From Eledone cirrhosa (lineage: Eukaryota), in the NCBI GenBank assembly GCA_964016885.1, contig OZ024755.1, positions 35,216,001 to 35,280,000 on the forward strand: a stretch of DNA of 64,000 nucleotides, given 5' to 3'. Each line of letters begins with the position of its first letter. Positions within the stretch are counted from its first letter, which is position 1. Positions 1,688-50,548 of this stretch are shown piece after piece. The notes under the pieces are model-generated. The model had not been told where the DNA came from, made no database searches, and was given only the letters and a program-made list of their open reading frames with translations. The position numbers and the translations under genes were made by a program.

Positions 1688-4025
1688 TGAGAGGGTCTTG
1701 GGGGTCAGAGTCCTCAAACACTCCTTCCAGCAGATCCTGTCAGCAGCAACCGTCTCCCACATATTTATGAGAGGGTCTTGGAGTCAGGGTCCTCAAACAC
1801 TCCTTCCAGCAGATCCTGTCAGCAGCAACCGTCTCCCACATATTTGTGAGAGGGTCTTGGGGTCAGAGTCCTCAAACACTCCTAGCAGATCCTGTCAGAC
1901 GCAACCATCTCCCACATATTTATGAGAGGGTCTTGGGGTCAGAGTCCTCAAACACTCCTTCCAGCAGATCCTGTCAGCAGCAACCGTCTCCCACATATTT
2001 ATGAGAGGGTCTTGGGGTCAGAGTCCTCAAACACTCCTTCCAGCGGGTCCAATCAGCAGCAACCGTCTCCCACATATTTATGAGAGGGTCTTGGGGTCAG
2101 AGTCCTCAAACACTCCTTCCAGCGGGTCCTATCAGCAGCAACCGTCTCCCACATATTTATGAGAGGGTCTTGGGGTCAGGGTCCTCAAACACTCCTTCCA
2201 GCGGGTCCTATCAGCAGCAACCGTCTCCCACATATTTATGAGAGGGTCTTGGGGTCAGAGTCCTCAAACACTCCTTCCAGCGGGTCCTATCAGCAGCAAC
2301 CGTCTCCCACATATTTATGAGAGGGTCTTGGGGTCAGAGTCCTCAAACACTCCTTCCAGCGGGTCCTATCAGCAGCAACCGTCTCCCACATATTTATGAG
2401 AGGGTCTTGGGGTCAGAGTCCTCAAACACTCCTTCCAGCGGGTCCTATCAGCAGCAACCGTCTCCCACATATTTATGAGAGGGTCTTGGGGTCAGGGTCC
2501 TCAAACACTCCTTCCAGCGGGTCCTATCAGCAGCAACCGTCTCCCACATATTTATGAGAGGGTCTTGGGGTCAGAGTCCTCAAACACTCCTTCCAGCGGG
2601 TCCTATCAGCAGCAACCGTCTCCCACATATTTATGAGAGGGTCTTGGGGTCAGGGTCCTCAAACACTCCTTCCAGCGGGTCCTATCAGCAGCAACCGTCT
2701 CCCACATATTTATGAGAGGGTCTTGGGGTCAGGGTCCTCAAACACTCCTTCCAGCGGGTCCTATCAGCAGCAACCGTCTCCCACATATTTATGAGAGGGT
2801 CTTGGGGTCAGGGTCCTCAAACACTCCTTCCAGCGGGTCCTATCAGCAGCAACCGTCTCCCACATATTTATGAGAGGGTCTTGGGGTCAGAGTCCTCAAA
2901 CACTCCTTCCAGCGGGTCCTATCAGCAGCAACCGTCTCCCACATATTTATGAGAGGGTCTTGGGGTCAGAGTCCTCAAACACTCCTTCCAGCGGGTCCTG
3001 TCAGCAGCAACCATCTCCCACATATTTGTGAGAGGGTCTTGGGGTCAGAGTCCTCAAACACTCCTTCCAGCGGGTCCTATCAGCAGCAACCGTCTCCCAC
3101 ATATTTATGAGAGGGTCTTGGGGTCAGAGTCCTCAAACACTCCTTCCAGCGGGTCCTATCAGCAGCAACCGTCTCCCACATATTTATGAGAGGGTCTTGG
3201 GGTCAGGGTCCTCAAACACTCCTTCCAGCGGGTCCTATCAGCAGCAACCGTCTCCCACATATTTGTGAGAGGGTCTTGGGGTCAGAGTCCTCAAACACTC
3301 CTTCCAGCAGATCCTGTCAGCAGCAACCGTCTGCCACTTATTCCTGAGAGGGTCTTGGGGTCAGGGTCCTCAAACACTCCTTCCAGCAGATCCTGTCAGC
3401 AGCAACCGTCTCCCACATATTCCTGAGAGGGTCTTGGGGTCAGAGTCCTCAAACACTCCTTCCAGCAGATCCTGTCAGCAGCAACCGTCTCCCACATATT
3501 TGTGAGAGGGTCTTGGGGTCAGAGTCCTCAAACATTCCTTCCAGCAGGTCCTGTCAGAAGTTACCAGAAGGTTGTGGGGTCAGAGTCCTCAAACACTCCT
3601 AGCAGATCCTGTCAGCAGCAACCGTCTCCCACATATTTATGAGAGGGTCTTGGGGTCAGAGTCCTCAAACACTCCTTCCAGCAGTTCCTGTCAGCAGCAA
3701 CCGTCTCCCACATATTTATGAGAGGGTCTTGGGGTCAGAGTCCTCAAACACTCCTTCCAGCAGATCCTGTCAGCAGCAACCATCTCCCACATATTTATGA
3801 GAGGGTCTTGGGGTCAGAGTCCTCAAACACTCCTTCCAGCAGATCCTGTCAGCAGCAACCGTCTGCCACTTATTCCTGAGAGGGTCTTGGGGTCAGAGTC
3901 CTCAAACACTCCTTCCAGCAGATCCTGTCAGCAGCAACCATCTCCCACATATTTATGAGAGGGTCTTGGGGTCAGAGTCCTCAAACACTCCTTCCAGCGG
4001 GTCCTATCAGTAGCAACCGTCTCCA
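1688..4025. repeat. 79-bp tandem array (~29-30 copies) made from the 3' end of an RTE-type LINE
   Basis: Unit gagagggtcttggggtcagagtcctcaaacactccttccagcgggtcctatcagcagcaaccgtctcccacatatttat (starts at 2161, 2240, ...); minus strand reads ETVAADRTRWKECLRTLTPRP, homologous to the LINE end at 47870-47960. Confidence 0.92.
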
Positions 4026-4939: not shown

Positions 4940-5254
4940 TAAAAATCTTTAAGTCATTTGGAAGCCTCGACAATGCAAATGGGTAAATCTCCGGGTAACA
5001 AGATCCGGTGGTGGAGAGACAGATGTAAGTGGGTGTACGTTGAGATGCGTGGTGTGTAAAGATGTGTAAATGTGTAGAAGAAAGAAGGGAAGAGTATAAA
5101 GGATAAAAATAAAAATAACAACACAAGAGAGAGTTACCTTGGGAGAGATTTAATAGTCCCTATATATTTCGGATTCACATCCATCAACTGGGGTTTTTTT
5201 CCGGAGATTTACCCATTTGCATTGTCGAGGCTTCCAAACGACTTAAAGATTTTT
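4940..5254 (-). mobile_element. Fold-back element (~55-bp inverted repeats) with degenerate hammerhead motif; probable Penelope-like terminal-repeat remnant
   Basis: aaaaatctttaagtcatttggaagcctcgacaatgcaaatgggtaaatctccgg is inverted at ~5201-5254; minus strand 5158-5192 reads ccc-cagttga-t-ggat/atcc-GAAA-tata-TA-ggg. Confidence 0.55.
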
Positions 5255-5317
5255 ATTATTATTCCACAATGCTTCAAGCAAACTTCAATACTCTCTTATA
5301 TATATATATATATATAT

Positions 5318-5797
5318 CTTACACCTCTCTAAGACAATGTCACTGGACCGAGATCTTTGGCGGTACGCAGTAATACAGAAAACCCGCCTTGCCTAAGTAC
5401 AAAGTGAAACCTACAGTCAGTAGGCACCTCTTAATCAAATATACAACCTCTTCCTACTACCCCAACTACCCCATCCCTACCTTCATCAACACCACCCCTT
5501 TCCCTGTAAAGTTATGTTGGTACCACAACATCCAGTCCTAAATAAATGAGGTCATGTAAGGTGTCAGGACAAAACAACACAGTCCACGCTGTAATGTGGC
5601 CGTGTAGGTAACACGGTAAGAACCTTCCAGTCCACACTGTAAACGTAGTTGGTGTTAGGAAGGGCATCCAGCCATAGAAAACCTGCCAGAGACACTTTCG
5701 CATGAGTGAGACATGGTCTCCCGACCATTCCCGCATCATATGGAACAAAATCATCTAACCCATGCTATCGTGGAAGATGGACATTAAATGGTGATGA

Positions 5798-5802
<5 letters not shown>
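5318..5802 (+). mobile_element. 5'-truncated RTE LINE: ORF end, 3' UTR and (GAT)n tail
   Basis: cacctctctaagacaatgtcactggaccgagatctttgg matches 22921-22990; ends ggacattaaatggtgatgatga. Confidence 0.8.
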
Positions 5803-5840
<38 letters not shown>

Positions 5841-5926
5841 TAGGAAGTATCTTTTATTTACAGTTGTATAAAAATAAAGCAGAGACCTGAAATGAATACT
5901 GCAAACCATTCTATCCAATGTTCTAA

Positions 5927-5927
5927 C

Positions 5928-5960
<33 letters not shown>

Positions 5961-6036
5961 AACATATATATATATATTTATATATATAAACATATATATA
6001 TATTTATATATATATATATATACTTATATATATATA

Positions 6037-6071
<35 letters not shown>

Positions 6072-6126
6072 TTATATATATATATATATATATATATATA
6101 CTTATATATATATATATATATATACT

Positions 6127-6158
<32 letters not shown>

Positions 6159-6192
6159 TATACTTATATATATATATATATATATATATATA

Positions 6193-6235
<43 letters not shown>

Positions 6236-6260
6236 TTATATATATATATATATATATATA

Positions 6261-6297
<37 letters not shown>

Positions 6298-6339
6298 TTA
6301 TATATATATATATATACTTATATATATATATATATATAT

Positions 6340-6392
<53 letters not shown>

Positions 6393-6397
6393 TTATA

Positions 6398-6459
<62 letters not shown>

Positions 6460-6542
6460 CATATATATATACTTATATATATATATATATACATATATAA
6501 ACATATATATATATTTATATATATATACATATATATACATAC

Positions 6543-6573
<31 letters not shown>
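5927..6573. repeat. (TA)n-based microsatellite
   Basis: Directly visible. Confidence 0.98.
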
Positions 6574-6578
<5 letters not shown>

Positions 6579-6912
6579 ATACTTTGGGAGGGTCATGTTG
6601 CCAATAAGAAACACACGTAGCAGTTGCTTTCACTTCAATTTATTATATATTTATAAATTTACAAATTTACAAACTTATAAATTTCTGGTTGGTTGGTTGG
6701 TTCCACAACCAGGTAGTTGTTTATATATAGTCATAGTCCTTTCGTCACACAATAAATAAATAAATAAATAAACAAATAGATAAATGAACACAAACACACA
6801 CAGACACCCAGATGTGGCGCATGCGCAAACTGAGCACACAACACACACACAGAAACAAAATGGCGTAGGATAGAGGAAAGGAAAGGCACAGAAACAAAGA
6901 AAGGAATCCCCA

Positions 6913-6955
6913 GTCACTGAAGAGGTCACAGAGTGTATGACGAAAGGACTAAGAC
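6913..6955 (+). ncRNA. Minimal type I hammerhead ribozyme motif
   Basis: gtca-CTGAAGA-g-gtcaca..tatgac-GAAA-ggac-TA-agac; the inverted copy preserves tgtgac-GAAA-ggac-TA-tgac. Confidence 0.65.
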
Positions 6956-7460
6956 TATATATAAACAACTATCTGGTTGTGGAACCAACCAACCAACCAG
7001 AAATTTATAAGTTTGTAAATTTATAAATATATAATAAATTGAAGTGAAAGCAACTGGTGCGTGTGTTTCTTATTGGAAACATGACCCTCCCAAAGTATAA
7101 CAATATCGGTTTCAACACACGATTTCAGATAAAGAATCTTGCTAAACAAATTCAGAAACGAAATATATATATATACATATATATGTATACATATATAAAC
7201 ATATATATATATATATATATAAACATATATATATATATATATATAAACATATATATATATATATATATATATTTATTTATATATATATATATATATATAC
7301 ATACATATCGTTTCTGAATTTGTTTAGCAAGATTCTTTATCTGAAAACGTGTGTTGAAACCGATATTGTTATACATTGGGAGGGTCATGTTGCCACAAAA
7401 ACAAGATGGCATAGGACAGAACAAAGGAGAGGCACAAAAAAACAAAGAAAAGAATTCCCA

Positions 7461-7503
7461 GTCACTGAAGAGGTCACAGAATGTGTGACGAAAGAACTTT
7501 GAC
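7461..7503 (+). ncRNA. Minimal type I hammerhead ribozyme motif
   Basis: gtca-CTGAAGA-g-gtcaca-gaatg-tgtgac-GAAA-gaac-TT-tgac: stems I and II pair, with one extra G before stem II. Confidence 0.7.
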
Positions 7504-7648
7504 AATATATAAACAACCATCTGGTTGTGGAACCAACCAACCTACCGGAAATTTATAAATTCCTAAATTTATTATAATAAATTGAAGTGAAAGCAACTGG
7601 TGCGTGTGTTTCTTATTGGCAACATGACCCTCCCAAAGTATAACAATA

Positions 7649-7730
7649 TACATATATATATATATACATATGTATATACATACATACATACATACATACA
7701 TACACACATACATACACACATACACACACA

Positions 7731-7775
<45 letters not shown>

Positions 7776-7784
7776 CATACATAC

Positions 7785-7859
<75 letters not shown>

Positions 7860-7860
7860 T

Positions 7861-7901
<41 letters not shown>

Positions 7902-7932
7902 CATACATACATATATATATATATATACATAC

Positions 7933-7963
<31 letters not shown>

Positions 7964-8133
7964 CATACATACATATATACATATATATATACATACATAT
8001 ATATATATATACATACATACATATATACATATATATATATATACATACATACATATATACATATATATATATATACATACATACATATATACATATATAT
8101 ATATATACATACATACATACATACATACATACA

Positions 8134-8169
<36 letters not shown>

Positions 8170-8322
8170 TACATACATACATACATATATATACATACAT
8201 ACATATATATATATACATACATACATACATATATATACATACATACATATATACATACATACATACATATATACATACATACATACATATATATACATAC
8301 ATACATACATATATATATATAT

Positions 8323-8353
<31 letters not shown>

Positions 8354-8374
8354 CATACATATATATATATATAT

Positions 8375-8404
<30 letters not shown>
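7649..8404. repeat. (CATA)n/(TA)n compound microsatellite
   Basis: Directly visible. Confidence 0.98.
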
Positions 8405-8405
<1 letters not shown>

Positions 8406-8576
8406 ATATTAAGGATACTATTTATAGTTATGTATATTTTAAACTATAAACAGGGAAGGTCAGTAATTTATTACTACCTTATTACTAAAAAATGCTCCGG
8501 ATACTCCAAGCCTCGGTTTGGATGAAACAATTGTAAGTGAATAAATGTTTTGAACATAGCTTTGATTCTTGTGAAT

Positions 8577-8615
<39 letters not shown>

Positions 8616-8668
8616 TTTTTTTATATACAATATGAATGACAATCAAAGAGTGTTTAAAACATTTAATC

Positions 8669-8713
8669 ACTTACAATTGTTTCTTCCTAGCACAAGGTTG
8701 GAATCATCAGAGT
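8669..8713 (-). ncRNA. Minimal type I hammerhead ribozyme with palindromic stem III
   Basis: Minus strand act-CTGATGA-ttcc-aaccttgtgcta-ggaa-GAAA-caattg-TA-agt; degenerate inverted copy at 8493-8539. Confidence 0.8.
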
Positions 8714-9695
8714 AGATAACAACGGTCAAACACAAATATAATATCAAACGATAGTCACAAGAACATTAGGAGGATACATAATATGAGAGACTAGATAAGT
8801 ATAAGTATCAACATTTATATAAGATAACAGAGAAACATATAAACGCAATAAAAATTAGGAGCAGATAAAAGCATTAAAGATTAAAAAACAAAAATCGAAC
8901 TTGGACCTCATAACAACAATACAGCACAATTATTTCACCTCAATTGGCTCCACTCTCTTTAAGATTACACCAAAACAAACAGATTAAAACAGAAACAGGC
9001 CCCATAAAGTTCAAGAAATCACAAATAAACCTCCTACAGCTGGATATGTCTCTGTAAACAATAACTCTCTTCATGAGTTGTCCATGGTGACCAAATCCTG
9101 ATTTGAAGGACTTCACCAGGTGCTGTTATTAAATTAGACATGGCCTGGGCCAATACTGGCCAAAAGTTATCAAAGTAATAATTCTATCAACTAGCTTTTC
9201 CTATGTTGTGACTCTCCTTGAGCAAGTCTTGCTGGAGTTAAACAACAATAGCAAACATAACAACACTACCGTTTTTATTTTTTGTCATTTGAACAAAGTG
9301 GTTATTGAATTCTCTACATTCAAAGTTATTTTCTTCTCCACATTCAAAGTTATTTTATTTCAAGTTGTCTTGAAAACAGTAGTATATATATATATACATA
9401 CATAGCTGCTAAAAATATCTGTGTGCTGGTATTTCTAGCAAAACATTTCAAACAGAAGACAAAAAACGTCTGTTAAATAAATTTGAAAGTGGACAGAAAA
9501 TTAAAAGCAAATGTTACAATATATGAGATTATTTGATTAGGGACAGAAATAAGAAAACCAACTTATGAATAACTTCGACTAAATTGATCAATATTTGGAA
9601 TTTTATGAAAAATAGTCTTGTAATATTGGTAGATATATGTGTGTATATATATATATATATATGTGTGTGTTTAGATATATATATATGTATGTATG

Positions 9696-9954: not shown

Positions 9955-11223
9955 CATCATCATCATCATCATCAACGTTTAACGTCCGTGTTCCACGCTT
10001 GCATGGGTTTGGACGGGGGTAGTCCCACTTGAGGCAAGAGTGATTGTCTTGCTCGCATAGGACTGTCTGGCAGGTTTTCTACAGTTGGATGCCCTTCCTA
10101 ACACCAACCACATTTACAGTGTGGGTCTGGGAGGTTTTTACCGTGTTGCCTACACGGCCACATTACAGCGTGGACTGTGTGTTTTTTTGTCGTGACACCT
10201 ACACGATCTCATTTGTTTCGGCCTCGAAAGGCGCGGCACCAACATAACTTTACATAGAACAGGGTGGTGTGGATCGGGTGGGGGTGGGGGTGGTGGGACG
10301 GGGTGTATTTTGTTAGAGATGCCTACTGGCTGGAGTAGGTTTTACTATATATTTAGGTAAGGCGGGTCTTCTCTGTTACTGAGTACCGCCAAAGGTCTCG
10401 GTCCAGTGACATTGTCTTGGAGAGGTGTAAGTGTGTGATGTCGGAGTTTATCAGCTCGTCCCAGGTTTTTCTAGGTCTGCCTATTCCGTGACTACCGTCT
10501 ATCTTTATTGCCCTGCACTTTGTTATACAGCTATCGACTTTCATGCGCATCACGTGTCCATACCAACGTAGCCTTCTCTCGAGTAAACAACATCTGATCC
10601 CTCTTATCTCTAATTTTTTCCTTAGTTCGTTTATGCTTTGCCGTTCACGTATATTACTGTTACACATCCAGCGGAGCATGCAAGCTTCGTTCCTCTCTAG
10701 TCTGCGTATATCCTCTGCACACAATGCCCAGGTCTCACTGCCATGCAGCATTGCTGTTCGTATGCAGGCATCGTACAACCTGCCTTTCATTTTTAGTGAG
10801 AACCCTTTAGCAGCTAATAGTGGTATAAGCTCTCTGAACTTTTTCCAACCAGTTCTGACTCTAGCTACAGTACTTTCAGAGCACCCTCCCCCACTGCTGA
10901 TTTTATCGCCCAGGTAACGGAAGCTGTCCACTATTTCTATAGAACCCTCTGCGCAATTGAAAGAGCTAGTAGTTTGTGGGCACTTGCTGCTACTTATTGC
11001 ACCAGAGCACCGGCCACATGTAAAATCTATGTTCTTAGTTAGCTTACCTGTGATCCCACTACATCTTTTATGCACCCATACTTTGCATTTAGGACATAAA
11101 ATGGAGTTTCTACCTACGCCTTTCCTACACACCGAGCACGACCATTTCCCAGAAGGGACCGCCGCCTTGTTTTCTTTCCTACAAACTAGCACTTTGGTCT
11201 TAGCCAGGTTAATTTTAAGTCCA
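9955..11223 (-). mobile_element. 5'-truncated RTE LINE (RT C-terminus with PHD-like finger, 3' UTR, (GAT)n tail)
   Basis: ORF 10353-11342: GLKINLAKTK, FRYLG, AMLHGSETW, RRLRWYGHVMRM, GRPRKTW; same family as 19950-22990. Confidence 0.93.
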
Positions 11224-11477
11224 TGTGTGGTTACATATATATATATGTATATATAAATGTGTGTGTGTCTATATATATATATATATGAGATATTAAATTG
11301 TGCACTAAGCAATAAGTATATATCCATACAGTAACAATACAAAATTTAACAAAAACTACGTAAATGTAAATGTGTAAATAAATACATTGGCATATGTAAA
11401 CAACTTTTTTTTCACATATTTCTTGTACACTGTAAAAGATAGATCAAATTTTCTTTCTCTCTCTATATATATATATA

Positions 11478-13220
11478 ATCATCATCATTTTGCGCCCGCT
11501 TTTCCCTGCTTGCAAGGGTGGGCGCGTCCTATTCAGCACAGCATCTTGCCACTTGTCATGGTCCTTTGTCATCTCCTCCGTGAGCTTCACCAATCTGAGG
11601 TCTGCTCTCACCACCTCCGCCCATGTTTTTTGTGGTCTTCCTTCCACCAGGATTTCTTGGCACTTCTTTACCCAGTGGTCATCCTTCATGCGCATCACAT
11701 GTCCATACCATCTCAGCTTTCTCTCCTGCACACTACAATTTATTCCTTTTATACACAGTTTCTCTCTCAACTCATTTATGCTTGGTCGTTCACGCACATT
11801 GACATTGCACATCCAATGGAGCATGCTTGCTTCATTTATCTCCAGCCGTCGCATACCTTCTGTTGTTGCTGCCCATGTTTCACTACCATGCAGCAACACG
11901 CATCTCACACAGGCAACATATAACCGCCTTTTCGTATGCAGGGAGAAACCCTTCTTTTCAATACAGGAAGCAACTCCTTAAACTTCTTCCAACCCATCCT
12001 TATTCTAGATACTATGGCCTCGGAACCCCCCCCCCCTCCCATGCTAATCTGATCTCCTAGGTACCGGAAGCTATCCACCACTTCTATAGCACCTGCCTGC
12101 ATTTGAAAGATGTATCTATCACTGCGACTTCTACTCTCAAATTTACCTGTGCATCTACTGCATACATAGTTTTCCTTACATGTTAGTTTGCCTGCTATTC
12201 CACTACATCCCTTGTGTACCCAAGATCTGCATTGTGTACATTCTATAGAATTTATGCCAGCTCCTTTTCTACATATCGAACATGACCATTTCCCTGATGG
12301 AATCAGAGTTTTGTCCTCTTTTCTACTTATCAGCACTTTTGTCTTAGCTAGGTTCACTCTCAGTCCTCTTCATTCCAACTGCTGTTTCCATAGCCAGAAT
12401 TTATTCTCTATCTCCTCTACTGATTCTGCTATAAGGACCAGATCATCAGCATAGATAAGTTCCCAGTCTTAAACTCCTCTTTTATGGCTTGGTGGATTAT
12501 AATGAATAAGAGCGGGCTGAGGACCGAATCCTGACGTACTCCTACTTGTATCTGGAATTCCTCACTAAACTTCATTCCTACCCTCACTTTACTGACAGCA
12601 CCCCTGTACATAGCTTGCACTGTCCTCACAAGCCATTCCTCTACACCTAGTTTCCTTAGGGACCACCAGATGACTGATCGGGTACCCTATCAAAGGCCTT
12701 CTCTAGGTCAACAAAAGCTAAGTATAGTGGCTTATTCTTCTCTAAGAACCTCTCTTGTAGTTGTCGCACTAAATAGAGGGCATCTGTTGTACTTTTTCCA
12801 GGCACAAAACCAAACTGCATCTCCTCTAATTTGACCCTTTCTTTAATTAGTTGTGCTGCATTCTTAATGTCACTTTCATAACCTGATCCATCAGTTTTAT
12901 GCCCTTATAATTGCTCCTCTCCAGAGCATCCCCTTTACTTTTGTAGCAATTTATGAGAATACTGCTGCACTAGTCTTTGGGTATGACTTCACCATATATA
13001 GCCTGATTGTCGATGCCTGCAACCATTTTTGTACCCAAGTCTCCTGATGCCTTCAGCATCTCAGCAACTATCCCCAACGGTCCTGTGACCTTATTCTTTT
13101 TCATTTCCTTAATTGCCTCTTGGACCCTATATTCGTCAATCTCAATAGCTGGACTCTCTGTCGGGTCTAGTGGGGGTAGTTTCTCTCTCTCCATTTTGTT
13201 CTCCACATTCATCAGTCTCT
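11478..13220 (-). mobile_element. Degenerate 5'-truncated RTE LINE (second family), frameshifted RT
   Basis: ORF pieces GVRQDSVLSPLLF, FRYLGD, LLHGSETW, LRWYGHVMRM; (GAT)n tail at ~11478-11490. Confidence 0.92.
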
Positions 13221-13597: not shown

Positions 13598-14350
13598 CCC
13601 ATGTTTCACTGCCATGTAGCATTGCTCTATGTTACACAACCACCACATTAACAGCCCATGTTTCACTACCATGTAGCAATGCTCTACATTACACAACCAC
13701 CACATTAACAGCCCATGTTTCACTACCATGTAGCAATGCTCTACATTACACAACCACCACATTAACAGCCCATGTTTCACTACCATGTAGCAATGCTCTA
13801 CATTACACAGCCACCTCATTAACAGCCCATGTTTCACTACCATGTAGCATTGCTCTACATTACGCAGCCACATCATTAACAGCCCATGTTTCACTACCAT
13901 ATAGCAATGCTCTACATTACACAACCACCACATTAACAGCCCATATTTCACTACCATATAGCAATGCTCTACATTACACAACCACCACATCAAGTCCCCA
14001 TGTTTCACTACCATGTAGCATTGCTCTACATTACACAACCACCACATCAAGTCCCCCATGTTTCACTACCATGTAGCATTGCTTTACACTACACAACCAC
14101 CACATTAACAGCCCATGTTTCACTACCATGTAGCAATGCCCTACATTGCACAACCACCACATCAAGTCCCTATGTTTCACTACCATGTAGCATTGCTTTA
14201 CACTACACAACCACCACATTAACAGCCCATGTTTCACTACCATGTAGCAATGCTCTACATTGCACAACTACCACATTAACAACCCATGTTTCACTACCAT
14301 GTAGCATTGCTTTACACTACACAACCACCACATTAACAGCCCATGTTTCA
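13598..14350. repeat. 57-bp minisatellite (~13 copies) derived from RTE coding sequence
   Basis: Unit cccatgtttcactaccatgtagcaatgctctacattacacaaccaccacattaacag; the reverse strand encodes ALLHGSETWA, as at 11870-11895. Confidence 0.88.
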
Positions 14351-19949: not shown

Positions 19950-22900
19950 AATGCAAGGATTCCTCTTTATTTCAGATGCGGATGGCAAACACAACCCCGT
20001 CTCCCTCACTCCGCCCTATACCTCCAACCCATCCCTTCCATCCATCAAATGAAATCCAAAACTTCAGAGTTGGTACCATGAATGTAGGCACTTTAAAATG
20101 TCGCTCTAGCGAGGTTGTAGCGATGCTTGAACGTAAGGAAGTTGATGCTTGTTGCGTCCAAGAGACTAGGTGGAGGGGTGGGTCTGCTAGATTCATTGTG
20201 GGTAAAAGAACGATGCTATAAACTTTTCTGGGTGGGAAATGAAAATGGGCTGGGTGGAGTAGGAATTATGTTAGCAGAAAAATGGGTAGATAAGGTAATT
20301 GACGTAAATAGAGTGAACGAAAGAATAATCAAAATAAGACTTGTCCTAAATAGAACTACTGTGACAATAATATCCGCTTACGCACCCCAATCTGGACTGC
20401 CTGGCGTTATAAAAGACAGATTCTATGAACCGACAGTGACTACATAATTATTGCTGGCAACGTAAATGGTCATGTTGGATAACATTGTGACGGCTATGAC
20501 GGAATCCATGGGGGTTTGGTTCCAGAAATGAGGAAGAATTCTGGAAATATAATTATCTGCAACGTAAACTTCAAAAAAACGAGACAATCACTTGATCACC
20601 TATAGATAAATTATATCCTTACCGGAAGACGTGACAAAGTGTCGGTTGTAAACACTAAATCCTTCCCCCGCGAAGAATGCACCTCCCAACATAGTCTCAT
20701 AGTTAGTGACCTCATAGTCAGGACAAGACATAGTTAACAACAGAGGAGGACTACCCTGAGAAGAAGAATATGGAAGTTAAAGGACCCCACAACCAGTAAC
20801 AAATTTAAAAGCATACTACTTGATGCTTTTGACAGTAAGGAAGAGCAATTAGAGACGTACAGTATAGAGGAACAGTGGGAATTCCTAAAAGTTAACCTGC
20901 TGAAGGTGTCAGATGAAATCTGTGGCTGGAGCAGACCTATAGGCAGGAGAGTAACATGGTGGTGGAACAGTAAGGTGGAGGAGTCAATCAAGGCCAAAAA
21001 GCAAGCTTGGAAAGTATGGCGGGATGGGGGAAGTAGAGAACACTATCAAGTGGCCAGGAGGGAAGCTAGGAGACAAGTGTACCTTGCAAGAAGGGAAGCA
21101 GAGGAAAGAAAGTTCAAGCATGTTCTACAATGCGAGGACCAAAAACGTGAGGTGTTCAGGATTGCTAGACAATGTGTCAAGGAAAACCATGATATTGTCG
21201 GTGAGAAGTGTGTCCGTAATGATGATGGTATACTTGCCATCACTGATACTGATAAGAAGGTAGCTTGGAAGTGTCACTACGAGAGGCTACTAAATGAGGA
21301 GAATAAGTGGGAAAAAGATAGTCTGCCCCAAATCGATCCAATAGTGCAAGTTGAAGGTAGTATAATAAGTAAGGCAATCAAAGATATGAAGACAGGCAAA
21401 GCAGCTGGGCCTTCAGATATAGTTGCTGAAATGCTGAAAGCATCTGGATCGGTGGGACACACTATGGTTTCCTGGATACTAAACCATGTCATACAGAATG
21501 GGGTCATACCAAATGACTGGCGTAGCAGCATCATCATTAACTGCTACAAGGGTAAAGGACATGCCCTAGATAGGGGAAACTATAGAGGCATTAAATTAAT
21601 TGACCAGGTCATGAAGGTCATAGAAAAGGTTATAGCGCAACTAATCAGAGAGCGAATTGATCTAGATGAAATGCAATTTGGGTTTGTGTCAGCTAAAAGT
21701 ACCACAGACACTCTTTTCCTTGTACGACAACTACAGGAGAAGTACCTAGCTAAAAGTAAACCCCCTATACTTAGCTTTTGTTGACTTGGAGAAAGCCTTT
21801 GACAGAGTCCCCAGCTCCATTATCTGGTGGGCTCCTAGAAAACTAGGTGTTGATGAATGGCTCGTGAGAGCTATACAAGCCATGTATAAAGAAACAGTCA
21901 GCAAAGTTAGAATTAACAATGAATATAGTGAAGAATTTAGCGTAAAAGTCGGTGTTCATCAGGGCTCTGTCCTTAGCCCCCTCCTATTTATTATTGCCCT
22001 TCAGGCTATAACAGAGGAGTTCAAGACCGGCTGCCCATGGGAACTTCTATACGCAGATGATCTAACGCTCATAGCTGAATCAATGGCTGAACTAGAGAAG
22101 AAATTCCAAACTTGGAAGCATGGCCTAAAATCAAAAGGCCTTAAAATTAACTTGTCTAAGACTAAAGTTCTATGTAGGAAGGAAAATAGGGCACTGGTCC
22201 CCTCTGGGAAATGGTCATGCTCAGTGTGTAGGAAAGGAGTAGGCAGAAACTCCATCTTATGTCCCAAATGCAAAGTATGGGTGCATAAAAGATGTAGTGG
22301 GATCACAGGTAAAGAACATAGATTTTATATGTGGCTGGTGCTCAGGTGCAATAAGTAGTAGCAAGTGCCCACAGGATACTAGCTCTTTCCATTGCCCAGA
22401 TGGTTCTATAGAAATAGTGGACACCTTCCGTTACCTGGGTGACAAAATCAGCAGTGGTGGCGGGTGCTCTGAAAGTACAGTAGCTAGAGTCAGAACGGGA
22501 TGGAAAAAGTTTAGAGAGCTTATACTGCTGTTGGCCGCTAAAGGTTTCTCCCTAGAAATGAAAGGCAGACTGTATGATGCCTGCATACGAACAGCTATGT
22601 TACATGGCAGTGAGACATGGGTATTGTGTGCAGAGGATCTGCGCAGACTGGAGAAGAACGAAGCTTGCATGCTCCATCGGATGTGTAATAGTAATATCCG
22701 TGAACGGCAAAGCATAAATGAACTAAGTGAGAAATTAGGAATAAGAGGGATCAGATGCTGTTTACTCGAGAGAAGACTACGCTGGTATGGTCACGTGATG
22801 CGCATGAAAGATGACAGCTGTATAAAAAAGTGCAGGGCGATCAAAATAGATGGAAGCTACGGAGTAGGCAGACCCAGAAAAATCTGGAACGATTTTATAA

Positions 22901-22990
22901 ATTCCGACCTTATACACTTACACCTCTCCAAGACAATGTCACTGGACTGAGATCTTTGGCGCTACGCAGTAATACAGAAGACCCGCCTTG
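19950..22990 (+). mobile_element. Near full-length degenerate RTE-clade LINE (APE endonuclease + RT + embedded PHD-like finger)
   Basis: GTMNVGTL..CVQETRW and ISAYAPQ (APE); NYRGIKL, QFGF, EKAFDRVP, GVHQGSVLSPLLF, YADD, FRYLG, LRWYGHVMR (RT); several frameshifts, stops and deletions. Confidence 0.96.
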
Positions 22991-26674: not shown

Positions 26675-27397
26675 AGGTATTAATCTCTTAATCCATTAAG
26701 GTTCTAATTTAGTGGATTAATAGATTTGAACATTCACACTTATTTAGAAAAGCAGTTTCTTGGTTCAGATCTAACTCCACACCATATATGTATTCAGAAA
26801 AAGGACATTGATGACAATTGAAAGCTATTCTCCTAACACCAGCTGAATAATGAAAAGGTTAGTTTATATTACTAGATCTCTGCAAATTCTTGATTATTTT
26901 CAAAACCATAATATCTTTCATTAGAAATATGGTAACGAAAGGGTTAAAGTGTTTATATAGAGTTGGTGTAGTTAAAAGAATTTTTTTTAATGGAAGCAAA
27001 GGTGGAGAGTAGGATAGAGGTTTTTGACTGGTCTCTAATCAAGATTGACTGTCTTAGATCTTCTCTTGACACCATTAAATGCTCCGCTTCCATTTTCATT
27101 CAGATTTTTATTTTATTGTTGCTTTCCCCATCCACATCTCTCTATACCATCTGTATCCCACCTGTCAATCAAACTATAACCCCACCCCCACTTGAGATGG
27201 ACTTTGGCAGAAATAAATGCAAACCATTTGGTTTAATTTCTCATTTTTGGCATCACAATATTATAAGCTTGCCTGTAGGTCACATCTATCATATATCTAC
27301 ACTCTACTTTCCTTAAGTATGGAATACTAAATTAAATAATGGTCTTATAGGTCTCAATTAATAAAATTTTATCCTTGTAAATATATATATATATATA

Positions 27398-46964: not shown

Positions 46965-47972
46965 GAGATCAGAGTGTCACTCCAGGTAGAGCCTCTACTT
47001 CTCTGATCAGAGATCACAGCTCTGATACTATGGACAGATGGTTAGAATGTCTCAGGAAAGAATCACTGGAGAGTCACTCCAGGTAGAGCTGCTACTTCTC
47101 TGAATTGAGAAATCAAAGCTCTGATACTATGGTCATGTGGTAAGAATGTCTCAGGAAAGAATCACAGGAGAGTCACTCCAGGTGGAGCTGCTACTTCTCT
47201 GAATTGAGAGATCACAGCTCTGATACTATGGTCATGTGGTAAGAATGTCTCAGGAAAGAATCACTGGAGAGTCACACCAGGTAGAGCTGCTACTTCTCTG
47301 AATTGAGAGATCACAGCTCTGATACTATGGTCATGTGGTAAGAATGTCTCAGGAAAGAATCACTGGAGAGTCACTCCAGGTAGAGCCACTACTTCTCCGA
47401 ATTGAGAAATCAAAGCTCTGATACTATGGGCAGGTGGTTAGAATGTCTCAGGAAAGAATCACTGGAGAGTCACTCCAGGTAGAGCTGCTACTTCTCTGAA
47501 TTGAGAAATCAAAGCTCTGATACTATGGTCATGTGGTAAGAATGTCTCTGGAAAGAATCACAGGAGAGTCACTCCAGGTGGAGCTGCTACTTCTCTGAAT
47601 TGAGAGATCACAGCTCTGATACTATGGTTATGTGGTAAGAATGTCTCAGGAAAGAATCACTGGAGAGTCACACCAGGTAGAGCCACTACTTCTCCGAATT
47701 GAGAAATCAAAGCTCTGATACTATGGGCAGGTGGTTAGAATGTCTCAGGAAAGAATCACTGGACAGATTTTATGGGTGAAACCAACAGGTAGGAGACCGA
47801 GGGGTAGACCCCGAGAAAGATGGCTGGATAACATCAATGAGCTTGGCTGGTCACGCTTGGGGACCCAGCCGGATCAGTCGGACGCGGTTGCTTCTGACAG
47901 GACCTGCTGGAGGGAGTTCTTTGAGGACACTGCCCCCACGACCCTCTCAGGAATAAGTAGGAGGAGGAGGAG
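46965..47972 (+). mobile_element. RTE 3' fragment with 99-bp internal tandem array (~8 copies, 46970-47762)
   Basis: Unit (47071, 47170, 47269, ...) encodes ESLQVELLLL*IERSQL*YYGHVVRMSQERITG, continuing into GRRPRGRPRERWLDNI. Confidence 0.9.
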
Positions 47973-48587
47973 AAAAAGAAAAAGAAAAAGAAAGAAAAAG
48001 AAAAAGAAGAAGAAGTCAAAGAACCCTTCCATTACCATATTTCTAATGAAAGACATTGCTGGTGATTTTCAATTAACCATGAAGAAAATATAGAATTTGA
48101 AGATTTGAATTTCAAATTGTAGCCAGTTGACCTTCTACTTGTGTCTCTAGTGTCTCAAAATAAACATTAATGTCACACATCTCTAGTCCTAGTTCTATTT
48201 AAATCTCAGTGTACCTCACTATGTATCAAATCAATGATAGTCATATTAGTTTTTTTAGTTCCGTTAGTTATTTTTCTATTTAATTTTTTTTCCATATGTT
48301 GATTATTTTCATTGACATTTTATAACTTCCCTTTGTTCCATCTTCATCTTCGTAAGATTATTATCAGTGCCTCATCAGACAAAATGCCTGGTAGTATTCA
48401 TTAATGACAATTAATGAGCTTTTGCGTTCTGAGTTAACCCTTTCATTACTGTATTTCTAATGAAAGACACTGCATGTGTATTTTGAAAATAATGAAGAAG
48501 AGTAATTTAGTAATATAACTAAGTTTCTCATAATTCGGCTGGTGTTTGAAACATAACTTAAAGATTCTTACATAAAATTATTATAAA

Positions 48588-49178
48588 TATTTGAAAAACT
48601 CAGATTACATTTATTGTATTCAGCCATGTAGAGTGAAAAAAAGTTTTCTTTTTTATTTGAATTTGGCAAAGCCAGCCATTTATCGCTCATATACAGTAAA
48701 CTGAGTGGCCAGTCTGCTGATATGCAAATCTAGCTGATCAGTAGATCTGCTAATATGCAGATCTGACTGATCAGCCAGTCAGCTAATATGCAAATCAGGC
48801 CGATCAGTAACTGTGTATTTTTGAAAATAGCATATATTTTCACTAGCTCTGACAGTTTGGCAGGTGAACAGTGAGCTGTACTGATGAAGGGTGATACCCA
48901 GAAACATTAGTGTCTGCAGTTCTGTTCACATGCCAACACAAGAGCAAGAATGAAGGGTTCATTCTACTGACGTGGCTATAAAATTGAGGCTTGTTTGCAT
49001 AATTGCAACCGAATCGAATGGTATTATTAATATTCAAAAAACTGATTACATTTATTGTATTCAGACATATAGAGCGAAAAAAGTTTTCTTTTTCATTTGA
49101 ATTTGGCAAAACCTGCCATTTATCCCTCGTATACAGGAAACTGACTGGCCAGTCTGCTGATATGCAAATATGGCTGAT
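48588..49178 (+). mobile_element. ~441-bp unit with ~150-bp terminal direct repeats enclosing the hammerhead (retrozyme or pLTR-like)
   Basis: 48588-48738 is repeated at 49029-49178 (gattacatttattgtattcag at 48603 and 49044). Confidence 0.6.
48857..48936 (+). ncRNA. Type I hammerhead ribozyme with extended stem I
   Basis: ttggca-g-gtgaacag-tg-agctgta CTGATGA a-gggt-gat-accc-a GAAA cattagtg TC tgcagtt-ctgttcac-a-tgccaa. Confidence 0.85.
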
Positions 49179-49391
49179 GTGTGTGTGTGTATGTGTGTAT
49201 GTATTTGTGTGTATGTATTTGTGTGTGTGTGTATTTGTGTGTATGTATTTGTGTGTGTGTGTATTTGTGTATGTGTGTGTGTATTTGTGTGTCTGTGTGT
49301 GTAAGCATGCAAGATTTAGTAGGGTGGTTACATCCAAACCGCTTTGCCTTCTCCATATTCACATACACACACACACATGTATGTATGTATG

Positions 49392-49711: not shown

Positions 49712-49750
<39 letters not shown>

Positions 49751-49821
49751 AGGTTCTATACAAAACAATGGTTATAGAGAAAAGGTGAAGTTGGAAATAG
49801 CACGGAAAATATATTTTAGGG

Positions 49822-49857
<36 letters not shown>

Positions 49858-49860
<3 letters not shown>

Positions 49861-50217
49861 GTGTAAATGTGCCTGAACGACCCAGCATAAATGTGTTGAG
49901 AGAGAAACTGTCTGAGAGGGATAGAATGTAGTGTACGGGAGAGGAGACTGAGGTGGTATGGACATGTGATGCGCATGGAGGATGACCGATGGGTGAAGAA
50001 GTGCCAGGAAATGCCAGTTGAAGGAAGACGTGGTAGAGGTAGACCACGAAAAACATGGGCGGAGGTGGTGAGAACAGACCTCAGATCATTGAAGCTCACG
50101 GTGGAGATGACAAGGGACCGTGACGAGTGGAGAGATGCTGCGCTGAATAAGACCCGTCCCACCCTTGCAAGCAGGGAAAAGCGGACGTAAAATGATGATG
50201 ATGATGATGATGATGAT
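49858..50217 (+). mobile_element. RTE LINE 3' fragment with (GAT)n tail
   Basis: MRMEDDRWVKKC..GRGRPRKTWAEVV..RDRDEWR; same family as 11478-13220. Confidence 0.9.
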
Positions 50218-50548
50218 ATAGATATATATATAGAGAGAGAGAGAGAGACCCTAAAATATATTTTCCGTGCTATTTCCAACTTCACCTTTTCTCTATAATC
50301 ACTGTTTTGTATAGAACCTTACTTCCCTTTTCTAATATATATATATATATGTATGTGTTAGTCTATATATATGTATGTATACACACACACAGACATATAT
50401 GTGTGTGTACAAAATGGTTGACTCACAGCCGCCTCTGTCCACATTTTCAATTTACAGAGGTGCCTTCCTCAATTTTTTCAATTCTTATTTCTAATGATCG
50501 ACTATTGTTGTGGTCATATGTGTTGGGACACACACTTTTCAACTGACA

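Follow-up and report, generated by a model that had tools for sequence, protein, structure and literature searches.

A dispersed, ORF-less hammerhead repeat with the insertion anatomy of Penelope-like elements

Introduction

Animal non-LTR retrozymes are short, head-to-tail, non-coding units with a GC content under 45% and a type I hammerhead; they number thousands per genome, form highly self-paired predicted circles and co-exist with Penelope-like elements (PLEs), as described by Cervera & de la Pena 2020 (PMC7229834). Mussel units measure 350-390 bp, and coral arrays reach 62 units (PMC7229834). Vertebrate retrozymes, in the available parts of Li, Clavereau & Pollet 2026 (bioRxiv 10.64898/2026.07.22.740005), occur as dispersed monomers and dimers in PLE-rich genomes, resemble pLTRs, and are proposed to use PLE machinery on the evidence of co-occurrence and pLTR similarity. 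Arguments about which enzyme spreads animal retrozymes have so far drawn on co-occurrence and on likeness of sequence.

PLEs with an endonuclease are the other relevant system. In the passages available of PMC4209133, PMC8557442 and PMC11167929, they form partial tandems with an inverted, 5’-truncated arm at AT-rich or microsatellite targets, and their pLTR hammerheads have a palindromic stem III, a stem I of 4-5 pairs and, in some, one base added between positions 9 and 10.1 (PMC4209133). Signatures of PLEs include inverted copies truncated at the 5’ end, a tail 30-40 bp long and a pair of internal reverse-transcription start sites (PMC8557442, PMC11167929); the anole PLE acts on AT-rich DNA by cutting both strands and extending them, and its two internal start sites bound the tail (PMC11167929).

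Here we describe a copy of a dispersed, ORF-less hammerhead repeat of 432-444 nt, likely a non-LTR retrozyme inserted by a PLE enzyme. In genome sequence and predicted folding it shares the retrozyme features listed above. The unit is slightly longer than those in the available parts of that paper, and the copies are mostly dispersed and sub-dimeric, with inverted arms and no arrays seen; its hammerhead is predicted to be blocked, which PMC7229834 notes, in the passages at hand, for some mussel circles only. Dispersed monomers and dimers in a PLE-rich genome recall the vertebrate retrozymes, but our unit is unlike any sampled pLTR, and the case for PLE machinery is made from insertion anatomy and physical PLE joins. 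The insertions match those of endonuclease-bearing PLEs in partial tandems, inverted 5’-truncated arm, tail of 30-40 nt, two start sites and targets, and the hammerhead matches theirs in its palindromic stem III and the extra base at 9/10.1; it differs from the PLEs described in those passages in lacking an ORF, in a 21-pair stem I and in a further A just ahead of G12. Elements of this kind are already known; the family is new. Neither cephalopod retrozymes nor retrozyme-PLE joins are described in the titles and abstract openings of the literature searched, a body that mostly excludes subscription papers. If the cephalopod host label is right, the family would extend retrozymes to a further lineage.

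Results

A partial tandem copy of a non-coding unit

The window, a stretch of 64,000 nt, holds one partial tandem copy of the unit (Table 1), numbered here from m1, the first base 3’ of the predicted cut. An earlier note on this DNA had described direct repeats of ~150 bp lying 441 bp apart and about 1.3 monomers. The spacing (440-443) and the length bear this out, but the copy begins 9 nt earlier than had been thought. The same note saw no recognisable coding sequence, and we agree: the two open frames scanned over the unit gave no Pfam match, the ATG within the hammerhead core meets a stop after 8 codons, and the 122 loci studied have no shared ORF.

Table 1. Features of the window copy and its immediate surroundings
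Feature	Position in window	Strand	Details
Whole retrozyme-like copy	48579..49178	+	432-444-nt non-coding repeat, ~1.36 units long; from m107 through m259 of the following unit
First terminal direct repeat (partial upstream unit)	48579..48738	+	88.75% identity to second over 160 columns
Second terminal direct repeat	49022..49178	+	
Three internal 33-bp repeats	48700..48809	+	Self-complementary words; predicted long hairpin
Type I hammerhead motif	48857..48936	+	Pattern and folding
Stem I arms	48857-48880 with 48915-48936	+	21 pairs, two small interruptions
Core CUGAUGA	48881-48887	+	
Extra A 5’ of stem II	48888	+	
Stem II	48889-48899	+	4 pairs, GAU loop
Extra A 3’ of stem II	48900	+	
GAAA	48901-48904	+	
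Stem III	48904-48913	+	Near-palindromic; 3 pairs
UC	48913-48914	+	Predicted cut 3’ of C48914
8-bp hairpin downstream of hammerhead	48947..48965	+	
tRNA-like SINE insertion hot spot	49024..49030	+	m109-110; vacant in this copy, used in 24/122 loci
Tail zone	49055..49092	+	Two main family end sites, m143-148 and m166-183
(TG)n microsatellite beside 3’ end	49178..49303	.	
Unrelated, very abundant repeat adjoining 5’ end	48434..48578	+	Outside the unit

The window copy differs from the family majority at 14/437 and 8/145 positions, with zero differences in the hammerhead stretch. The number of internal 33-bp repeats varies from copy to copy. Because the window copy carries a single hammerhead and ends at m259 against (TG)n, an uncommon type of 3’ end in the family, it is likely a dead product rather than a source element. 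The available part of the vertebrate study defines an active retrozyme as two consecutive units with complete motifs (bioRxiv 10.64898/2026.07.22.740005), a structure that the window copy does not have. The abundant repeat at its 5’ end starts with TTAACCC and recurs in the window at 48022-48086 and 26822-26947.

A large family with several subfamilies

The exact 34-nt core has 1,104 matches in the genome, or 2,184 when 13 stem II positions are left free, and reversed core patterns, used as a control, have 0. From the fraction of copies with identical stems (43-48/100), and allowing 4-6% change at 22 fixed positions, we estimate roughly 5,000-9,000 ribozyme copies. We assembled 122 loci (90/100 from the exact-core listing plus 38 variant loci, less 6 duplicates), all on contig C1 and all picked for a near-intact core, so that counts inside the core are biased.

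Divergence from the family majority averages 5.1% (range 1.4-11.9%, 177 pieces). The family contains at least three linked subfamilies, suggesting that several source versions were active. The core is identical across all three, and 9 diagnostic changes lie elsewhere. Subfamily alleles within a locus agree in 100/119 tandem and 216/256 inverted comparisons (84%), as against 53% between loci. Variants at m13/m14 had been considered as CpG decay, which we rejected since their linkage extends to distant subfamily markers. Contigs from four sequencing runs on the region carry the same variants and both head-to-tail and inverted joints; a shared foreign continuation was absent from the 6 loose ends shown of 337.

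Copies have the anatomy of PLE insertions

The loci comprise 72 head-to-head inversions, 49 single copies and 1 other arrangement. Of the 3’ ends of their 196 arms, 87 fall at m138-152 and 78 at m163-188, with 3 in the gap separating these zones and 28 outside them, so that 165/196 end in two zones ~35 nt apart, the tail pattern of PLEs. The peaks lie at m143, m148 and m180, give or take a few bases owing to AT microhomology, and we infer that m143-148 and m166-183 are reverse-transcription start sites. A simple repeat adjoins 125/168 zone ends compared with 259/2,440 control sites. The copies therefore display a two-site tail of 30-40 nt, 5’ truncation with an inverted partner arm, and AT-rich or microsatellite targets, as PLE insertions do.

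The 5’ ends are spread out, with about one stop per 200 nt and a mean arm of ~200 nt; no 5’ position has more than 3 ends among the 196 arms. We asked whether 5’ ends concentrate where the cut is predicted. The effect is weak at most: ends are about twofold commoner near it (13 events, p = 0.02 before correction for 5 bins), so cleaved ends leave no clear mark. Arms that wrap past their own start number 46/196, and 16/196 contain two cores. Strict tandem core pairs lie 432-444 nt apart in 7/8 cases and 353 in one. The family thus combines a type I core, a low-GC non-coding unit within the retrozyme size range of about 150-450 nt, and head-to-tail copies with two ribozymes, as non-LTR retrozymes do. 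Larger multimeric arrays, which are common though not required in retrozymes, were not found: none of the 122 loci of contig C1 has three full cores, and arms never exceed about two units.

An abundant tRNA-like SINE of ~190 bp sits in the same orientation at m109-110, sometimes twice (for example L010, L011, L061, L072 and L094); 18/21 mapped SINE-to-unit joins fall there despite other TTAT words in the unit. A composite master that includes the SINE seems unlikely, as its left junctions vary by locus and resemble separate insertions with duplications or deletions. Speculatively, a SINE at this site might provide a Pol III promoter ahead of the T-run.

No ORF of its own accompanies the unit

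We scanned the 74 longest of 282 frames (loci L001-L120) and found scattered reverse transcriptase (RT), helicase and protease fragments. When 13 resident PLE frames were used as a library, matches appeared in the flanks of 32/122 loci, from several families and at varying distance and orientation; a consistent ORF with RT and GIY-YIG domains accompanied the unit in none of the 122 loci. Nor did the unit resemble, at word size 7, the ends of 20 GIY-YIG loci or 24 helper-family loci (see below), a small sample drawn from 10,597 GIY-YIG candidates in the genome.

The window itself provides a positive control. A second hammerhead repeat (6575-7650; cores at 6917 and 7465) has an inverted structure and (TA)n flanks, and one of its core variants has 8,795 exact matches genome-wide. 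Of 10 loci fetched, 8 were distinct, and in 3 of these the repeat showed its own PLE ORF, which marks it as an ordinary pLTR family.

Physical joins point to a candidate helper

Three insertions join the unit to one PLE family (L135/L191). At the discovery locus (L040/L191), the 5’ end of an arm meets the 5’ end of a truncated PLE, which continues as far as its stop codon, and no microsatellite lies between. A second join has 14 extra nt (L230), and in the third (L212/L233) two inverted arms are followed by a 56-nt linker. After the discovery locus, joins were seen in 2/59 further copies (two among the other 39 family hits and 0 in 20 further new loci), where ~0.07 were expected (Poisson p ~0.002) on a generous background of one copy per 100 kb and with the 5’ end within view in some but not all loci. 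Two control families gave 0/30 (L150; the junction was visible in 17) and 0/29 further copies (family X), the latter being a different, older PLE family with one direct join, at L056. Two of the three helper-family joins fall at nearly identical PLE positions, so a hot spot may lie behind the joins. At L142, L145 and L304, retrozyme copies lie close to PLE ORFs but have microsatellites on both sides, and they were not counted as joins.

The joined family encodes both an RT and a GIY-YIG domain and has a CxxxxCxxC linker, the mark of Neptune and Nematis in PMC8557442. As for the host, which the earlier note labels a cephalopod, the closest named relatives of a resident PLE protein are bivalve proteins (60-64%). 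Copies of this family are 89-95% alike, an age similar to that of the unit. Alignment of the unit’s tail with the end of the family did not rise above shuffles (11, 33 and 31 of 200 were as good). We conclude that this PLE family, with its Neptune/Nematis-type Cys linker, is likely the helper or one of several.

The 56-nt linker (L212, 481-545) is 82% like a sequence beside another copy’s 5’ end (L119, 3229-3288) and also has one match at L134, which suggests that a third RNA may have been copied in the same insertion. Several young PLE families are present, with 92-98% protein identity within a family (L136, L137, L140 and L148; L138, L142 and L151; L143), and long open frames of 938 and 1,096 codons stand in L133 and L135. 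At least three further distinct hammerhead motifs occur in or near young PLE families.

A complete hammerhead predicted to be locked as a monomer

All core nucleotides and the three stems of a type I hammerhead are present in the window copy, and much of the structure first proposed proved sound: the catalytic core is complete, the long interrupted stem I pairs as described, and stem II has its 4 bp. The A-A mismatch said to close stem II has an equally good reading, in which G10.1 and C11.1 form a normal pair and a single additional A stands to either side of it. A base added between positions 9 and 10.1 has precedent in PLE hammerheads (PMC4209133, available passages); a second extra A, between C11.1 and G12, is undescribed in the titles, abstracts and passages of the literature searched.

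The motif had also been called well-folded. As a region this stands, since the 96-nt hammerhead region folds with z = -3.6 and 0/200 shuffles did equally well, but the term overstates the case for the ribozyme itself. In the minimum-energy fold the catalytic core pairs with the stem III segment; the monomeric hammerhead fold lies 6.6 kcal/mol higher with an ensemble probability of 2e-6 (ViennaRNA, whose energies leave out the non-standard contacts of the hammerhead core). Stem III, whose near-palindromic form had been noticed, is predicted to pair with that of a second copy in a 10-bp duplex at -8.8 kcal/mol, compared with -7.9 kcal/mol for pairing with its own copy’s core. The hammerhead-model search proposed in the earlier note came up empty: an Rfam scan at E<=1 returned 69 matches, nearly all microsatellite noise, with no hammerhead model among them. 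Folded as circles, six natural units gave z of -5.4 to -7.5 (25 shuffles each; GC 37-39%), an effect to which the internal 33-bp repeats contribute.

Covariation in the stems is thin. Among 190 aligned units, the hairpin downstream of the hammerhead is closed by A-U in 155 and by G-C in 21, a compensatory change that is probably one event. Within the hammerhead, three common stem I variants retain pairing via G-U or A-U, but these changes are one-sided and at subfamily level, where no compensatory change was seen inside the motif. Private mutations disrupt pairs freely, as expected of dead copies.

Discussion

Several claims of the earlier note are strengthened by these data. It had proposed a partial-tandem insertion of a non-LTR retrozyme, which fits a family of thousands of copies with natural dimers spaced 432-444 nt; a reading that depended on other genomic copies has found them in abundance. 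Its appeal to Penelope-like machinery accords with two-zone tails, frequent inversions and microsatellite targets, and the 122 loci show copies that are not tied to a Penelope ORF.

We consider it very probable that PLEs mobilise the unit, and somewhat more likely than not that cleavage and a circular intermediate take part. In the mechanism we propose, a dimeric locus would be transcribed, and its two hammerheads would pair through the palindromic stem III, allowing one unit to be cut out. The excised unit would be ligated into a circle, its core then locked by stem III pairing. A PLE protein with RT and GIY-YIG domains would nick both strands of an AT-rich microsatellite, reverse transcription would begin at either start site and halt after ~200 nt on average, and the two arms would be joined 5’ to 5’. 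A more ambitious, combined claim is possible but doubtful. Under it, the family would be a parasite in the form of circular RNA, with a sequence unrelated to that of its helper; its chimeric insertions, in which twin priming yielded one arm from retrozyme RNA and the other from PLE mRNA, would be direct fossil evidence of the copying enzyme; and its ribozyme would at the same time represent a new hammerhead variant, its stem II flanked by an additional A at either end, locked by stem III as a monomer and active in the dimer only.

The same PLE-driven spread could instead proceed from linear read-through transcripts of dimeric loci, with a weak or vestigial hammerhead, no circle, and tandems formed as in any PLE. 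The extra As and the locked core are in keeping with such a route, as are 5’ ends that do not stop at the cut site and arms of at most about two units. According to PMC11167929, the anole PLE worked in vitro chiefly on unprocessed RNA, and HHR cleavage was dispensable for its insertion; in the vertebrate preprint, only 1 of 9 Xenopus dimers cleaved (bioRxiv 10.64898/2026.07.22.740005). Wrap-around arms fit a circle or a linear dimer, so the genome cannot separate the two. However, the core stayed constant in three subfamilies while 9 diagnostic changes accumulated elsewhere, and stem I changes keep pairing; moreover, with arms averaging ~200 nt, a linear-only lineage would presumably have to rebuild its dimers repeatedly. 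We therefore regard linear transcripts as a somewhat unlikely but serious source of the copies.

It is improbable that the copies are 5’-truncated terminal-repeat stumps of an unsampled, ORF-bearing PLE, that is, an ordinary pLTR. Their architecture is that of PLE insertions, PLE-like coding sequence flanks about a quarter of the loci (32/122), and the PLEs compared are part of 10,597 candidates. Yet what lies upstream of the hammerhead is another unit, not an ORF, in the 46 wrapping arms; the flanking PLE matches belong to several families at variable distance and orientation; the real pLTR family of the same window revealed its ORF in 3/8 distinct loci; the ATG of the core soon runs into a stop; and the unit is unlike the ends of the sampled PLE families. 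More improbable still is a DNA-level repeat, either a satellite unit or a miniature DNA transposon, with a hammerhead-like motif by chance. The missing Rfam match and the expansion and contraction of the 33-bp repeats would suit it, whereas fixed 3’ ends with random 5’ truncation and one-sided polarity, dispersal over many contigs, the lack of a shared terminal inverted repeat, and the complete core with its three stems argue against it. A retrozyme inserted by a PLE enzyme remains our preferred reading.

Insertion anatomy and PLE joins make the question of the helper testable. With start sites mapped and a candidate helper that has long open frames, the published in vitro PLE assay (PMC11167929, available passages) could test the partnership and compare circular with linear RNA.

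Other features of the window

A scan of 59 frames from the window gave no host-gene domain. Fragments of LINEs that match RT and PHD-finger domains lie at 10356-12904 and 20738-22947, and a 106-nt inverted repeat (97%; 49749-49854 and 50216-50321) surrounds a LINE 3’ fragment. Minisatellites with periods of 79 bp (1688-4024), 57 bp (13598-14350) and 99 bp (46972-47763) are also present, the 99-bp array adjoining a LINE 3’ end.
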